Assembly: GCA_965207065.1 (NCBI GenBank)
Contig: OZ242260.1
Location: 3,968,001 to 4,032,000, forward strand
DNA: 64,000 nt
Direction of reading: 5' to 3'
From: a bacterium
Lineage (GTDB): Bacteria > UBA8248
Numbering within the stretch: the first letter of the stretch is position 1; each line of letters begins with the position of its first letter. The position numbers and the translations under genes are program-made. The notes beneath the pieces are model-generated. The model searched no databases, had not been told where the DNA came from, and was given only the letters and a program-made list of their open reading frames with translations. Below are positions 18,814 to 24,509 of this stretch, piece by piece.

Positions 18814-19434
18814 ATGAAGGACAGGAAAGCGAACAGGTTGGAGGGATACGATTATTCGGAAGACGGGTGTTATTTCGTGACGATTTGCGTGCAAGGCAGA
18901 GAAGAATTGTTCGGTGAAATCATCGGCGGTGAGATGGTTTTGAGCGAGGCGGGAGAAATCGTAACAGCGCGATGGCAATGGTTGTCCGAGCGATATGATT
19001 ATGTCGAATTGGATGAATACGTCATGATGCCGAATCATTTCCACGGCATATTGATCATCCAATCCCGCCGTAGGGACAGGTCGCGACCTGTCCGGGGTTC
19101 CCGCGCCTGTCCAACGCCCCCGCGCATGCACGCCACGCGGCGGGATGATGTTACCACATCGCCAGGACATATCTGTGGTAGGGACAGGTCGCGACCTGTC
19201 CCTACGGATACGTTGAAAATCAAATCATTGTCGGAATTGATAGGCGCGTTCAAAACCACGTCGTCGAAACGTATACGCGAAAACGGCTTCGCTTCCTTCA
19301 AATGGCAACGATCGTTCTACGATCACGTGATCCGGGATGATCTGGACCTGAACCGCATCCGGGAATACATCCGGGACAATCCGTTGAAATGGGCGCTCGA
19401 TGAATACAACCCGGCAAACCACGCGGCGGGATGA
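18814..19434 (+). CDS. REP-associated tyrosine transposase (RAYT, IS200/IS605 Y1 HUH family)
   Basis: RLEGYDYS...YFVTIC, HUH motif MPNHFHGIL, SLSELIGAFK, WQRSFYDHVIR, catalytic YIRDNP; embedded in REPs. Confidence 0.93.
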   Translation: MKDRKANRLEGYDYSEDGCYFVTICVQGREELFGEIIGGEMVLSEAGEIVTARWQWLSERYDYVELDEYVMMPNHFHGILIIQSRRRDRSRPVRGSRACPTPPRMHATRRDDVTTSPGHICGRDRSRPVPTDTLKIKSLSELIGAFKTTSSKRIRENGFASFKWQRSFYDHVIRDDLDLNRIREYIRDNPLKWALDEYNPANHAAG

Positions 19435-19732
19435 TATTCCCACATCGGTAGAACGTAACTGTAGGGACAGGTCGCGACCTGTCCCTACGCGGCCGGTGGC
19501 CGGAATGACGAAGGGCGACCACGGGGATAGGCGCCTTCGAGGCGGGCGGCTACAGGTCGAACTTCCCGAAGAGGGGAGTTCGACGCCCCTACGGGTCCAC
19601 CGCGCCTGCACAACCCGCGGCGGGATGATATCCCCACATCGGTAGAACGTAACTGTAGGGACAGGTCGCGACCTGTCCCTACGGAATCGGTGGCCGGAAT
19701 GACGAAAGACAACCACAGAAGCGTCCACACAC

Positions 19733-19761
19733 AAAAAAAGCGGCCCCTCATCCGGGGCCGC
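19733..19761 (-). terminator. Rho-independent terminator closing the lipoprotein operon
   Basis: Stem gcggcccc (19740-19747) / ggggccgc (19754-19761), followed on the minus strand by T7 (A7 at 19733-19739). Confidence 0.8.
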
Positions 19762-19780
19762 CTCTTTGAATCCATCCCTC

Positions 19781-19964
19781 GGCGGGGTTGCCAAGCGAGT
19801 CCAAACCAGCTATAGAAACTGCTGGGGGTTACTCATTATTCCCTGCCCACGCTGAGAGGACTCAAACTCTGTCGCATGGGCCGGTACAATTTGCTCCCGA
19901 CGATGTAGAGCAACCAATGAGTAACCCCCAAAAGAAGTCACCCCCTCTTTCCCGGCAACCTGCC
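19781..19964 (-). ncRNA. Putative structured RNA (about 185 nt) in the 3' UTR of the lipoprotein operon
   Basis: Perfect 15-bp inverted repeat 19823-19837 / 19916-19930, two inner hairpins and an outer stem; the imperfect pairs are G-U on the minus strand but A-C mismatches on the plus strand. Confidence 0.55.
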
Positions 19965-20022
19965 CTTTCTTCCGTCTAGTTTTCATCAGGCCCGGCCCGC
20001 AGGCCAAAGGCGTCCTGCGCTC

Positions 20023-21702
20023 TTACCTGTGCGCCCCGAACGACCCGATGAAGGCGGTGCTTCCCGCCGGATTGCTTTGCTGTTTTACGTAAAAGGTTCC
20101 CGCAACCGAACCGGGAGCCTGAGGCGAGTACGTTGTTGTTATCGTGGTTTGTATGTTGGTCGGGTCCGTTCTATCCGTGTTTGTTGTTTGGGACCTTGTG
20201 ACCCTATGCCCAAAAAACTGGCCCTTCCAATCGCCACCGTAGGATTTTCCGTCAACCACGCCGACGGCCGTGCCAGCCGCAAAAGCGGGGTTTATATCAT
20301 CAACGAGGTTCTGTTTCTGCAGTTCGATGCTGCCATCGATTGATTGTCCGCCGGCGGTGATGTTCGTTACTTCGCCCTGAATGCTGCCCGTGTTCGTAGC
20401 TGTACCGGTTGGATTCCGGAACTCGGCGTTGAGCGTAACGTCCGCCGTGAAATAGCTTGTATCTCCACCCGCGAGGTAAGCGCCGTTCGCATTCCCGCTG
20501 TAGGTGGCCTTTACGTCTTTACCGTCGTCCACAATTGCGTCGATGGTGTTCACAGTAGTGGTTGCACAATTTCTTGTAGTACTTCCGTTCGCACCAGATG
20601 CTTCAATACCACTGCAGAAAGTCTGAGCAGTTGTTGCGATGGGCTGGCTCCCGTATGCGAATGCCGAAATCGTGGAAGCTCCAAAATTGGCGCCCACAGT
20701 AAGCCAGATGCCGGCGAGCAGGTAGTCGGTGTCGCGAAAATCCATTTCTGTGTACCGGTCATCGCCATCACTTAGATCAGTGTCTTCCACGACGTTTGTT
20801 CTTGTTCTTACATTGAGTCTCGTTTGCGTAATGTCAGTGTAGGCGTTGACGAAGGTGGAGCCGTCAGCGTTTTTCAGATCGAAGCCATGGGGGAGGCGGC
20901 CCGTTCCGGTGAGGGAGGGCGTCGTGCTGTCCGATGTAAGACCCTGTACCACAACCGTTCGCTGTCCGGTCACCCTGTCAGCGCCGGTCCCTGTATTCCC
21001 GGGGAATGTGGCGCAAGGCGCAGTACAAGTCTCGGTCTTATCATTGTTTATAGTCGTGACCATGGCCGAGCCAACGACAATGCTATCGGCTGTCACCGCG
21101 CCCAAAACAGCGTCTGCGAGGAGTTTGTTTTCTCTCACGTGCTTGATGAGCGAGGAGTTGTTCGTCAAGGCGATCACGTCCGCTTCCCGTTGTCTGCGAG
21201 CTTCCGCAACCGCGTTTACGGCGCTTTGGACCGCCGCCACAGCCGATTGTGCGCTTCTCAGGCGGGAAAGCGCCGCGTTCGCATCCGCGACCGCCATTTC
21301 CGCCGCCGCAGGCGTGGTGGCCGCATTCCCGGCGCTGCTCGCGCCTTCGACGCCCGCCAGGGCTGCCTGCGCGTCGCCGGCATGAGCGAGAGCGCTTGCT
21401 ATCTGATCCGCCGTAGCGTCTTCGTGAGTCTGCACCGCCGCCGCCGTCGAACTCGCCGTTTGCGCCAGATTACGGGCGTTAGAGACGATGCCTGCGAGCG
21501 TATTTCTCGCCTCGGCTATCCTTTCCTCATCCGTCGGCCCCGGCTCCATGCAGTCCGGGTACGTCCCGACTTGCTCCTGCGGGCATTCCATCACCGGCGT
21601 CGTCGCTGAGCCGCCGCCCCCGCCACCGCCGCAACCGGAGGCAAATGCCGCAATGCACACGACAAGTACCGCCAATCCAAAATATCTGAGCATTTTCATC
21701 AC
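20023..21702 (-). CDS. Surface lipoprotein with a C-terminal TbpB/HphA-like beta-barrel (Slam/T11SS cargo-like), copy 2
   Basis: Lipobox FASGC plus Gly run, Ala-rich helical stalk, ATYSGNANGAY, WKGQFFG, PGSVAGTF, terminal GSFGAHR. Confidence 0.75.
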   Translation of the reverse strand: MMKMLRYFGLAVLVVCIAAFASGCGGGGGGGSATTPVMECPQEQVGTYPDCMEPGPTDEERIAEARNTLAGIVSNARNLAQTASSTAAAVQTHEDATADQIASALAHAGDAQAALAGVEGASSAGNAATTPAAAEMAVADANAALSRLRSAQSAVAAVQSAVNAVAEARRQREADVIALTNNSSLIKHVRENKLLADAVLGAVTADSIVVGSAMVTTINNDKTETCTAPCATFPGNTGTGADRVTGQRTVVVQGLTSDSTTPSLTGTGRLPHGFDLKNADGSTFVNAYTDITQTRLNVRTRTNVVEDTDLSDGDDRYTEMDFRDTDYLLAGIWLTVGANFGASTISAFAYGSQPIATTAQTFCSGIEASGANGSTTRNCATTTVNTIDAIVDDGKDVKATYSGNANGAYLAGGDTSYFTADVTLNAEFRNPTGTATNTGSIQGEVTNITAGGQSIDGSIELQKQNLVDDINPAFAAGTAVGVVDGKSYGGDWKGQFFGHRVTRSQTTNTDRTDPTNIQTTITTTYSPQAPGSVAGTFYVKQQSNPAGSTAFIGSFGAHR

Positions 21703-21837
21703 TTGCCCCCTGAGGGTTACGTCCCCTTCCGGGAAAGAAGGGGGCGGGCGGTTGAAACCAGGTCCAATGAATCGTTTGCTTTGAGAACCCCCGGCCCCGG
21801 GCTCAGAGAGCCCGAGGCCGAAGGGAGTCGTGCGTTG

Positions 21838-23574
21838 TTACTGCCTGTGTGCGCCGAACGCGCCGATCAGGCCCATCTTGTTGTCCCGGCTGGCCGCGCC
21901 GAATGTTCCGGCAACACCCGTCGGGTGCGTGGTGGCCGTGCCGTTCGGACCGTATAGCTGACCGCCCCAGTTGCCCCTGAGACCGGCTCCACCGAGAACG
22001 CCGTCTGTAGCGCCTGTGAACCTTCCAGCTGCGCCATCTGTCTCAGTCAATTCGGCTTTCACCAGATTCAGGGAGCCGTCAACAGCTTGTCCGGCGGCCT
22101 TGACGTTCGTAATGCTTCCCGAGACCGTCGCCAGAAGAGCGGTGTTCGTTGCGCCGCCGAAGTTGACCTCGAGCGAGGCGTCCGCGTCGAAGTACTGGAC
22201 CATGCCGCCCGCTGTATAGAGGCCGGTGGCACTTCCTGCATACGAGGCTTTACCCGTGATAGATGCAGTAACCTCATACGGCTCATTGCCGTACACGAAG
22301 GCGCCTGCCTCGGCGGGATCGATTGGGATGGCATCGCCATTATCAGCTATCAGGGAGTCCCTGCTGGAAGCGGTTACCCACATACCCCAGGCCATGTAGT
22401 CTTCGTCGTGACCGGGATCTTTTCCTGTGGCGGTTCGGTATGTGTATCCAGTATTCTCTACAATTTTCCCGTCTTCACCCACGCTTATGGCACATGGGGT
22501 AGTGGCGGGATCTGCACAGTAAATTTGAGCCGTAACCGCGACATTGTTGTCAGTGGGATCCAAGTTGAGCAACACTTCAAAATTGCTGCCATCGCTCGGT
22601 ATATCACCCGTCAATACAGCAGTTCCTTCTAGATCTGCTGTTATTTCAGTTCCTGCTCCCGTATATATGTTCTTTTCAACCGACGCTTCGATGTCCGTGG
22701 TGACGACGAGATGAGATTTCGTATTGTCGCTTGTTGTGCGTACCAGATCTGCGGCTTCGTTTCCTTTGATATGGAAACGTGAAGGCTCTTCACCCGTCCG
22801 CATTCGATTTACCGCATCAGTACCGCCATGGTCAATCGTGAATGTTGATCCACCATCCTTATGCACCACGAATGAGACTCCATCTACTGCGCTTACATCA
22901 GTCGTAGACGTATAATTGGGAGGGGTACTGGTTGCGCGCTGGTTTAGCATACCTAAAGTAGTACCAGCAGTACCATGGGTAGGAGTACCAAATCCTCCGG
23001 CAACCGCTACCGCCAACCCTGCGGTAGCCGAATTTGTCATTGCCTTTGGCGGAGTCGAACCTTCCAGCTCGGCATTTTCGATGTCGTCGCCGTTGAGCAG
23101 CTTGTTCGACAGGTTGACAAGTACCAGGCTGCTCATGCCGGACGCCATCTCCGCGCTGGCTTGGGCCGTCTCGGCCGCCGTCTTATATTCCCCGGCCATC
23201 GCCGCAGTTTCGGCCATCGCCGCCGCGTCGGACGCCTCCTTGGCCGCGTCCGCATACATCTGCGCGTTGCCGGCCGCCACGGGGTCCACCGCGCCGCCCA
23301 CGGCAGCCATCGCCGCCATGTAGGCCGCCATGGCGGCTTCCTGCGCGCCGCTCAGGGCCATTTCTTCGTCAAGGTCCGCGGCGGAGGTGCAGGAACCGTC
23401 CGCGTTATACCGGCCGCCGTCACCTTCGCACATTTCCTGCGGGGTCGGGTCCGGCATGGCGGGCGGGTCCGGCGTCGCAGCCGTTCCCCCGCCGCCGCCG
23501 CAGCCGGCCAGCGTCAGCGCGAAGGCCGCCGCCAGCATGAATGAAAAGATTCTGTTTCCGTCAAATTTCATCAC
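21838..23574 (-). CDS. Surface lipoprotein with a C-terminal TbpB/HphA-like beta-barrel (Slam/T11SS cargo-like), copy 1
   Basis: Lipobox LAGC plus Gly run, Ala-rich stalk, YMAWGMW, ASYAGSATGLY, WGGQLYG, PTGVAGTF, terminal GAFGAHRQ; AGGAGG RBS. Confidence 0.78.
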   Translation of the reverse strand: MMKFDGNRIFSFMLAAAFALTLAGCGGGGGTAATPDPPAMPDPTPQEMCEGDGGRYNADGSCTSAADLDEEMALSGAQEAAMAAYMAAMAAVGGAVDPVAAGNAQMYADAAKEASDAAAMAETAAMAGEYKTAAETAQASAEMASGMSSLVLVNLSNKLLNGDDIENAELEGSTPPKAMTNSATAGLAVAVAGGFGTPTHGTAGTTLGMLNQRATSTPPNYTSTTDVSAVDGVSFVVHKDGGSTFTIDHGGTDAVNRMRTGEEPSRFHIKGNEAADLVRTTSDNTKSHLVVTTDIEASVEKNIYTGAGTEITADLEGTAVLTGDIPSDGSNFEVLLNLDPTDNNVAVTAQIYCADPATTPCAISVGEDGKIVENTGYTYRTATGKDPGHDEDYMAWGMWVTASSRDSLIADNGDAIPIDPAEAGAFVYGNEPYEVTASITGKASYAGSATGLYTAGGMVQYFDADASLEVNFGGATNTALLATVSGSITNVKAAGQAVDGSLNLVKAELTETDGAAGRFTGATDGVLGGAGLRGNWGGQLYGPNGTATTHPTGVAGTFGAASRDNKMGLIGAFGAHRQ

Positions 23575-24205
23575 TTTTGAGTCCTCCTAGTCTCGTGACA
23601 TTAAAGAGCTTTGCAACACAAAAAATCTGAAGTGTTTGGATTCGACCTCCTTTCCTTGACTTTCCGACTTTCCTTGAATCCTTCGTTATCGGGCTTCTTT
23701 CGTTTCGTCGTGTTTCAATTCATCGGAGCGGGGCCGGTTCGCGCGGCCGCCGGCCCGGACATCTGAGTCCGGGCCGATGGCCGGCTTATCCACGAGACTG
23801 GTGTGGGATGCGTTGCGAGTTTCATGATGGATTGAGTCCTCCCGCCTCGTGATATGAACCTTCTCCGGCCCGCGCCGGAATTCTCAAGTCTCCTTCTTCA
23901 GGCGCCTTCCGGCTTGCGTGCTTCCCTGGCCGGAGCGCCGCCCCGGCGAACGAAGCGCCGGGCGTCTTTCTGACAGGTTCACGAGACGGGAGAGGGTTTT
24001 GTGGCGTGCTGCATCATGGGTTGAGTCCTCTTAGCCTCGTGAGTTGCTGCTTCCCCGGCTCCCGCCGGGCTTTCCGTCTTTCTTCAGGACCGGAGCCGCC
24101 GCTTGCGCGAACGCGAAGCTCAGGGCCTGTGCCTGAATCGATTCACGAGACTGGAGAGGGTTTTGTGGCGTGCTGCATCCTGGGTTGAGTCCTCTAGCCT
24201 CGTGA
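23575..24205 (-). promoter_or_regulatory. Lipoprotein leader with three hairpin/RBS/uORF repeats (24143-24205, 23979-24042, 23791-23852) and a fourth half-copy that forms the gene's own RBS (23575-23598)
   Basis: Minus-strand consensus TCACGAG-N4-5-GAGGACTCAA in all four; the first three close with GTCTCGTG(A). Confidence 0.75.
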
Positions 24206-24367
24206 TTTCGTACTGCATCCGACCGGAATCTTTCTGGGTCATCGTCTTCCGGTCTGTCAAGCCATGCGCAAGTGCGGGCTTAGGGTTCCCGGCTCATCCA
24301 GCTTTCGCGGCGTGATCCGCGTCGTGTCGAGCGGGCGGCCCTGATAGCGACTACTCTCGCGTATTGC

Positions 24368-24409
24368 TTGACATATATGATAGTGTGGCAAGTATTCCGC
24401 TCTTGTCAA
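24368..24409. promoter_or_regulatory. Inverted pair of TTGACA boxes; probable promoter region for the lipoprotein leader (minus strand), possibly with a second promoter on the plus strand
   Basis: TTGACA at 24368-24373 (+) and at 24404-24409 (-) in an AT-richer patch; the -10 boxes are weak. Confidence 0.4.
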
Positions 24410-24509
24410 CCCTTTAATTGAACTTGCGCGCAACTTTCAATCCGTCCGCTTCCGCAGGGTGACGGATCGAGTATGAACCAACGGGGTTTGATGATCAAAC
24501 GGGAGGGGG

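Follow-up and report, generated by a model that had tools for sequence, protein, structure and literature searches.

The hairpin cluster downstream of two lipoprotein genes is a true copy of an uncatalogued, genus-restricted family of folded RNAs. It lies on the minus strand of the window (the whole 64,000-nt stretch of contig OZ242260.1 analysed here), and one of its loops is complementary to the ribosome-binding site (RBS) of the first lipoprotein gene. This match suggests, without proving, that the lipoprotein genes may regulate themselves and each other through RNA.

A three-way junction upstream of the operon terminator

The core element of the window-type copy (106 nt, 19824..19929, minus strand) forms a three-way junction consisting of a 15-bp closing stem, hairpin 1 and hairpin 2. 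The fold was read from the sequence and returned by RNAfold, and the element was matched by the covariance model of the family with 86.6 bits (E 4.8e-18) and is backed by family covariation. In the closing stem, UGGGGGUUACUCAUU (19930-19916) pairs with AAUGAGUAACCCCCA (19837-19823). Hairpin 1, UUGCUCU-ACAUCGUCG-GGAGCAA (19913-19891), has its arms at 19913-19907 and 19897-19891 and carries loop 1 (19898..19906), which is kept in window-type orthologs. Hairpin 2, GCCCAUGC-GAC-AGAG-(UUUGAGUC)-CUCU-CA-GCGUGGGC (19881-19845), presents loop 2, UUUGAGUC (19866-19859). Together with three stem bases, loop 2 makes up the sequence UUUGAGUCCUC (19856..19866, minus strand), which we call the anti-RBS sequence on the basis of its complementarity and conservation. 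All of the features listed in the first-pass annotation were located at their positions with the same predicted fold, and the perfect 15-bp stem with two hairpins was confirmed by both the minus-strand sequence and RNAfold.

The 3'UTR holding the element runs from 20022 to about 19733 (~290 nt). A rho-independent terminator, GGCGGCCCC-GGAUGA-GGGGCCGC followed by U7 (19733..19762, minus strand), ends the operon, and a hairpin with changed bases is kept at this site in four orthologs (G008, G016, G021 and G026). Our promoter and terminator pattern scan missed this obvious terminator. By RNAfold, the minus strand of 19725-20025 (301 nt) reached -132.9 kcal/mol (z -4.0), and 0 of 100 shuffles were as stable. 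The plus strand of the same stretch folded more weakly (-104.8 kcal/mol, z -3.1).

Comparison of 10 orthologous loci did not uphold two outer parts of the structure proposed earlier. The outer stem GGUUGCCGG/UUGGCAACC lacks conservation: G011, G021 and G026 have no upstream arm. GGACUC (19802-19797), proposed as a pseudoknot or switch partner of the loop, is conserved in none of the orthologs read. Other identities of the element were also considered. A coding reading was ruled out by the 1-2-nt indels between copies (100-109 nt) and by the paired changes. The motifs of a tRNA-like T-loop and of a hammerhead (CUGAUGA upstream) were not kept among the copies, and Rfam gave no match. DGR, integron attC and an invertible segment had no supporting feature.

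An RNA family restricted to one genus

A DNA search of the source genome (4.48 Mb) detected 10 copies of the element, which belong to a family of ~100-109-nt elements and are 72-77% identical over a 107-nt core. When these copies were aligned, compensatory changes were observed in all three helices (12 of 36 pairs). A covariance model built from the source genome's own copies recovered copies in 16 of the 22 further genomes of this genus, 3-16 in each. The same search gave no copies in 19 genomes from eight other genera of the family, nor in 28 genomes drawn from the rest of the phylum.

Among 58 distinct copies (65 matches), 24 of the 36 pairs were changed on both sides and 95.6% of the cells were paired, in an alignment whose fitting to the covariance model somewhat favours the structure. 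Pairing fell to 36-60% when the partners were slid by 1-3 columns, and 0 of 500 shuffles reached the observed values. This covariation among homologs bears out a fold first described from a single copy. The non-Watson-Crick cells of the stems were also counted, giving 227 G:U versus 30 A:C. This excess indicates that the strand of the lipoprotein genes is the folded strand; the first-pass annotation had chosen the same strand on the basis of two pairs.

The loops stay constant while the stems vary. Loop GAGUUUGAGUCCUC was unchanged in 9 of the 10 copies of the source genome and in all window-type and lipoprotein-type rows among the 58 distinct copies. The copies differ by subtype. The lipoprotein subtype has stem GGGGGUUGCCCG, loop 1 CCUCGUGAU and loop 2 UUUGAGUC; the core subtype has stem GGGGGUUACUCA, loop 1 ACCUCGUGG and loop 2 UUGGGUC; the window subtype combines a core-type stem and a lipoprotein-type loop 2 with a loop 1 of its own. 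An orphan hybrid copy at 116754-116862 (+) of the source genome, with no lipoprotein gene before it, carries a lipoprotein-type stem and a window-type loop 1.

The first-pass annotation had asked for a check against known families, particularly 6S RNA and riboswitches. At gathering thresholds, no Rfam 15 family matched anywhere in the 64-kb window or in any of three core-type loci. When the thresholds were relaxed, the scans yielded EBER2 (14.4 bits, threshold 200) and sub-threshold hairpin matches on the downstream terminator, and nothing else. With more than 100 copies, the covariation described above and its absence from Rfam, the alignment is fit for curation as a new RNA family.

Lipoprotein operons and decayed remnants

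In the window, the element begins 93 nt after the stop codon of the second lipoprotein gene (20023..21702, minus strand), which encodes 559 aa with a signal peptide, the lipobox ASGC and the C-terminus ...GSFGAHR. Relatives of this protein, 57-63% identical, were found in MAGs titled Nitrospinota bacterium. The first lipoprotein gene (21838..23574, minus strand) encodes 578 aa with the lipobox LAGC, and its product likewise has a signal peptide. The earlier label of these proteins as TbpB-like could not be retained, as Pfam gave no family at E<=0.01 and only a spurious Bestrophin_2 match (11.3 bits) at E<=5.

The position of the element is shared by most copies. Eight of the 10 copies in the source genome begin 62-137 nt past the stop codon of a same-strand lipoprotein gene, usually the second gene of a two-gene operon, and 17 of 20 copies examined in nine other genomes directly follow a same-strand lipoprotein gene. 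The 3'UTRs are built alike: the stop codon is followed by a hairpin and an A-rich linker, then by the element and, about 45-90 nt farther on, by a terminator hairpin and its U-run. Orthologous window-type operons are present in 11 genomes. Five element-less congeners were tested; G013, G015, G024 and G025 are also without the lipoprotein family, and G014 has one weak lipoprotein match (E 5e-7). Some of the sequencing runs with small shares of the window's words are labelled sponge metagenome, and among the 23 runs listed no RNA run contains the locus.

The core type is found at a single conserved locus, where two or three units often stand in tandem, each with the degraded coding sequence of a lipoprotein C-terminus in front of it. 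Only G020 retains this gene intact; in G023 it carries a frameshift, and in the other genomes 130-190 nt of it are left. The core-type element is conserved and still covaries despite the decay of its upstream gene, and no sense promoter was found for the copies whose upstream gene has decayed.

Upstream of the core-type element there is a separate conserved non-coding stretch of ~250 nt that contains the repeat CATACAATCC three times (L064:2190-2494, source genome 1626190-1626494), and the same stretch is present at the same place in L049, L051, L055, L059 and L060. Beside it, a strong minus-strand promoter match, TTGACC-17-TATAGT, overlaps the palindrome TGACC-N4-GGTCA. Rfam gave no match for this stretch, which may be another unknown RNA gene.

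Complementarity of the loops to the ribosome-binding sites

The anti-RBS sequence UUUGAGUCCUC is an exact 11-nt complement of 23576-23586 at the RBS of the first gene (GAGGACUCA) and a 10-nt complement of three leader units, which agrees with the complementarity claimed in the first-pass annotation. The word GAGGACTCAA occurs 5 times in the window versus 0.12 expected, and 0 of 100 shuffles reached 5. Its sites are the loop complement, the RBS of the first lipoprotein gene and the three leader units.

The paralogous operons have another, highly conserved leader ending in CAGGAGGACUCACUAAAUG, a 9-nt match to loop 2. This match is present in 6 of the 7 other element-bearing operons of the source genome and in 17 of 20 copies elsewhere. 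Similarly, GAGGACTCA stands at the RBS in 7 of the 8 element-bearing operons of the source genome, the operon at 2574k having a different RBS. In nine other genomes, the RBS of the first gene was GAGGACUCA or a wobble-compatible variant for 17 of 20 copies examined; the variants seen, GAGGACUCG and GAGGAUUCA, still pair with the loop by wobble. Over the whole genome GAGGACTCA occurs 43 times (34 expected), and 15 of these are at RBS-like positions, 9 of which belong to lipoprotein genes; it is no general RBS word.

The family context strengthens the putative link between the loop and the RBS, with the limit that paralogous operons with conserved leaders are not independent and perhaps amount to 2-3 independent observations. 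Since the loop and the RBS are both nearly invariant, covariation between the loop and its target cannot be scored. Whole-molecule RNAduplex of the element against 8 RBS windows gave z from -0.1 to -4.0, many not significant; this comparison, with 100 mononucleotide shuffles per window, produced unrealistic long interior loops and was judged uninformative.

Loop 1 of the lipoprotein and core types (CUCGUGA) complements UCACGAG(G), the upstream half-site of the RBS. At the first lipoprotein gene the bipartite motif reads UCACGAG-ACUAG-GAGGACUCAAA (23576..23598, minus strand); it is kept in orthologs and is identical (CACGAGACTAGGAGGACTCA) in 11 orthologous loci. At the level of sequence, lipoprotein-type and core-type copies would match the window-type leader and RBS with both loops (CCUCGUGAU/AUCACGAGG and UUGAGUCCUC/GAGGACUCAA). 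Loop 1 of the window-type copy has no match to UCACGAG and no convincing target, its only match being one of 6-7 nt (GACGAUG/GACGACG) near the 5' end of the leader.

The pattern YCACGAR-N0-9-GAGGAYYCA was counted in the genome. It gave 8 matches versus about 0.5 expected, and six scrambled or swapped controls gave 0-1; the pattern was written after examples had been seen, and 4 of the 8 matches are tandem copies in one leader, that of the window. All 8 lie 3-6 nt before a start codon, and those outside the window precede a gene for a 791-aa lipoprotein, two enzymes and an integrase-like ORF.

Sequence and fold define three tandem units in the window leader, at 24205-24143, 24042-23979 and 23852-23791 (together 23791..24205, minus strand). 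Each unit of ~63 nt carries UCACGAGG-N3-5-GAGGACUCAA and is closed by a UCACGAG/CUCGUGA stem. The predicted hairpins (-15 to -20 kcal/mol each) enclose an SD-like GAGGA and a mini-ORF, and orthologs have 1-4 units. The mini-ORFs (MQHATKPSPVS, twice) are doubtful as leader peptides, the ATG being lost in several orthologous units. Because orthologous units are often without an ATG, the leader units have the appearance of RNA units, not of leader peptides.

Four of six paralog leaders (source genome 43761, 61690, 108378 and 121771) were folded such that an upstream GAGUCCUCC, about 65 nt before the RBS, is predicted to sequester the SD GGAGGACUC; one copy reads UGAGUCCUCGA, as in the loop of the element. 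Since the upstream word is predicted to sequester the same SD in cis, the anti-SD word appears to be in use for this RBS.

Two further genes for lipoproteins, with leaders of another class (MFFRKNTS... and MFFCVKTP..., at 1865463 (+) and 599425 (-) of the source genome) have CACGA-N-GAGGAGGACUCA at the RBS and no element downstream. Genes similar to this class also occur in G023 and G026. Judged from their RBS sequence, the two genes of the source genome are candidate targets in trans.

A promoter-like motif on the plus strand

The first-pass annotation had also proposed that TTGCCA-N17-TATAGA (19788..19816, plus strand) could drive an antisense transcript. This promoter-like motif is present and points into the element, its -10 box ending 7 nt from the element edge. 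By script, the same hexamers and spacing with a different spacer sequence were found in 7 of 11 orthologous loci; one more locus (G018), read from the sequence, has the same hexamers with an 18-nt spacer, which brings the total to 8 of 11. The -10 boxes of the orthologs are TATAGA, TATTAA, TATAGC or TATAAA. The -10 box stops 7-8 nt short of the element in five of these orthologs; in two, a repeat has been inserted between them. Exact TGGCAA at that spacing was found in 12 of 45 distinct downstream flanks, including those of the lipoprotein type. Set against a sigma-70 promoter, with hexamers 16-18 nt apart and A and T at positions 2 and 6 of the -10 box, TTGCCA agrees at 5 of 6 positions, the spacer is 17 nt, and TATAGA agrees at 4 of 6 without the final T. 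The motif is conserved, but its -10 box is atypical, and the pattern scan never calls the motif because the final T is missing in every copy. It may be a promoter for an antisense RNA or, alternatively, a motif that acts in the RNA.

Proposed function and alternative explanations

We propose that the element may be a 3'UTR regulator whose loops pair with the RBS regions of lipoprotein mRNAs and lower translation initiation, the most likely of the readings considered, to which we give somewhat less than an even chance. The fold, its strand, conservation across the family, the place in the 3'UTR and the complementarity are shown by the analysis; transcription through the element, pairing in the cell and the sign of the effect are what we infer here. 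The element lies on the sense strand, in the 3'UTR of the lipoprotein operon, after the last stop codon and ahead of the terminator. Its stems would need only to pair, and the two apical loops would be the constant, functional parts. Loop 2 (UGAGUCCUC) would serve as an extended anti-Shine-Dalgarno sequence for the RBS of the family (GGAGGACUCA), and loop 1 in most members would match the adjacent upstream half-site. By base-pairing with this region the element would reduce translation initiation, either in cis on its own transcript, like icaR, or as a processed 3'UTR-derived sRNA, like OppZ. Because all copies share loops, it may also act in trans on paralogous operons, and the outcome would be negative feedback over the whole lipoprotein family. 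Several points count against this proposal. Any CCUC-containing loop partly matches an SD; the window copy has no loop 1 match to UCACGAG, so the two-site model fails in cis for this copy; and core-type copies persist with neither an intact upstream gene nor a detected sense promoter.

The very stable fold just upstream of the terminator and the conserved loops would also suit a structural module of the 3'UTR, such as an exonuclease barrier, a processing signal or a site for an RNA-binding protein that reads the conserved loops. In that case, which we consider unlikely, the RBS match would be chance or a by-product of shared recognition: the word GAGUCCUC also occurs in leaders, so one factor could read both, and the RNAduplex statistics are weak. 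A stabiliser, however, would have no need of two loops matching two adjacent halves of one RBS motif, the 3' end is already protected by the terminator hairpin, and core-type copies are kept where no upstream gene is left to stabilise. It is less probable still that the locus works as a convergent sense/antisense pair, a possibility that we regard as doubtful. The plus-strand motif would then fire an antisense RNA with its 5' end at the closing stem and complementary to the element over its whole length, which would control processing or stability of the 3'UTR or present an RBS-like loop as a decoy. The hexamers kept with 17-18-nt spacing around a variable spacer, the short distance to the element in 5 of those 8 loci and the TGGCAA flanks agree with it, and in the lipoprotein type an A-rich run precedes the hairpin that follows the stop codon, which gives this hairpin the orientation of an antisense terminator. 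Against it stand the incomplete -10 box, uncalled by the scan, and the G:U excess, which points to selection on the sense fold; moreover, the motif is absent from core-type copies, and the window copy has no convincing antisense terminator.

The element might also act at the level of DNA, as a Correia-like MITE, an HUH/Y1 single-strand hairpin site, or the 3' boundary of recombination or gene conversion among lipoprotein cassettes, and we hold this to be very unlikely. Correia and other MITE-type repeats are multicopy units of about 100 nt with inverted-repeat ends, co-transcribed with neighbouring genes. The present element is likewise multicopy (3-16 copies, in one genus only), its 14-15-bp closing stem reads as a perfect terminal inverted repeat, and orphan copies exist (source genome 116k; L078, L081 and L083). 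Tandem units of CDS remnant plus element at the core locus, tandem RBS units in the leader, and a Y1 transposase-like ORF 400 nt away are also in keeping with a DNA element. Unlike such repeats, it shows no target duplication (flanks AATTT|...|TCCTT and GAAAA|...|GTTCT), homology continues into the end of the CDS and the downstream region, and 25 of 30 copies examined have the same orientation and same-strand context after a lipoprotein gene. Its inner hairpins covary around invariant loops, its stems carry the G:U bias, and the neighbouring Y1 gene pairs with a GTAG-type REP palindrome of its own. Logan contigs (short unitigs, in which rare inversions would escape) from 4 runs were compared with 19500-24500, and no strand-changing joint was found at the loop or the RBS; one contig spans 19656-20036 as in the window.

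A bolder version of the RBS-pairing proposal, which we think quite improbable, is a family-wide RNA network that would rank or exclude variant surface lipoproteins. Every paralogous operon would export a two-loop anti-RBS RNA in its 3'UTR, and the leader of the window-type 'master' operon would act as 1-4 tandem decoys of the bipartite RBS. This master would be matched by both loops of other operons' elements and by one loop of its own. Either the paralog elements would silence it, or its leader would sponge the paralogs' RNAs, and the system would be reset from a convergent antisense promoter present at every element. If true, mutually exclusive antigen expression would have a post-transcriptional counterpart in an animal symbiont.

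Relation to known systems

Only a handful of examples of regulation by bacterial 3'UTRs are known, all of them single genes of cultured model species. The RNA module described here covaries, has invariant anti-RBS loops and accompanies an entire, expanding family of surface lipoproteins in a genus of uncultured, sponge-associated bacteria. Surface proteins of this sort are probably exposed to the host. Were the pairing real, a single RNA word would link the output of 8-16 operons, a simple and portable design for family-wide dosage control. A shallow check of the literature on Nitrospinota and sponge symbiont lipoproteins, limited to titles and abstract openings, found no such RNA. The kind of mechanism is already known; new variations on it are the link to an entire multigene family, the match of two loops to a bipartite motif and leader repeats that resemble decoys.

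LhrC of Listeria and the CcsR or 'cuckoo' RNAs of alpha-proteobacteria are multicopy sibling sRNAs with C/U-rich anti-SD loops. Their copies are near-identical, some in tandem; their targets include mRNAs of surface proteins and lipoproteins, and they are free-standing genes with their own promoters. The present family is likewise multicopy with anti-SD loops, whereas most of its copies are embedded in 3'UTRs.

The icaR mRNA of Staphylococcus aureus has in its long 3'UTR a C/U-rich anti-SD motif, UCCCCUG, that base-pairs with the mRNA's own SD region and prevents initiation; only one gene is involved, and cleavage by RNase III was demonstrated (PMC3868564). The element resembles it in being part of a 3'UTR of more than 100 nt with a motif complementary to the SD region of its own mRNA. 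In contrast to icaR, it is a covarying three-way junction common to 8-16 paralogous operons; its 9-11-nt match extends past the SD, and its second loop has a half-site of its own.

OppZ and CarZ of Vibrio cholerae are RNAs from operon 3'UTRs that pair with an RBS inside their own operon and give negative feedback; they are Hfq-dependent products of RNase E that include the terminator, each from a single locus (PMC7398697). The present family is similar in that its putative seed is complementary to an RBS of the same operon, in the window operon, in 6 of 7 other operons of the source genome and in 17 of 20 elsewhere. It differs from OppZ and CarZ in its predicted target, the RBS of the first gene, and in being multicopy, so that cross-talk would be expected. 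The two-loop match recalls OxyS and fhlA of E. coli, where two stem-loops contact two short target sites, one covering the RBS; the sites lie in the leader and the coding region (PMC2946933, citing Argaman & Altuvia 2000). In most members of the present family the two apical loops would similarly match two halves of one RBS motif. Unlike the OxyS sites, these half-sites are separated by 1-9 nt, one lying on the SD and the other upstream of it, and the window copy has one matching loop.

Other repeats around the element

The ORF at 18814-19434 (+) has a weak match to the IS200-like Y1 transposases (PF01797, E 3e-5, 24.6 bits, cut-off 23). Beside it, the perfect palindrome GTAGGGACAGGTCGCGACCTGTCCCTAC lies at 19655-19690, and the two resemble a RAYT/REP pair. 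At 19655/19690 many contigs are broken, in line with a dispersed repeat. A different repeat of ~75-95 nt, GGGAGGGAATAAATCAGACGCTC...GCGTCTGACCCCCAGCC, lies directly 3' of the element at L121, L123, L124, L125 and L127 (orthologs G010, G016, G017, G018 and G022), singly or in tandem arrays, and every copy of it ends with a duplicate of the element's terminal CCCCCAGCC.
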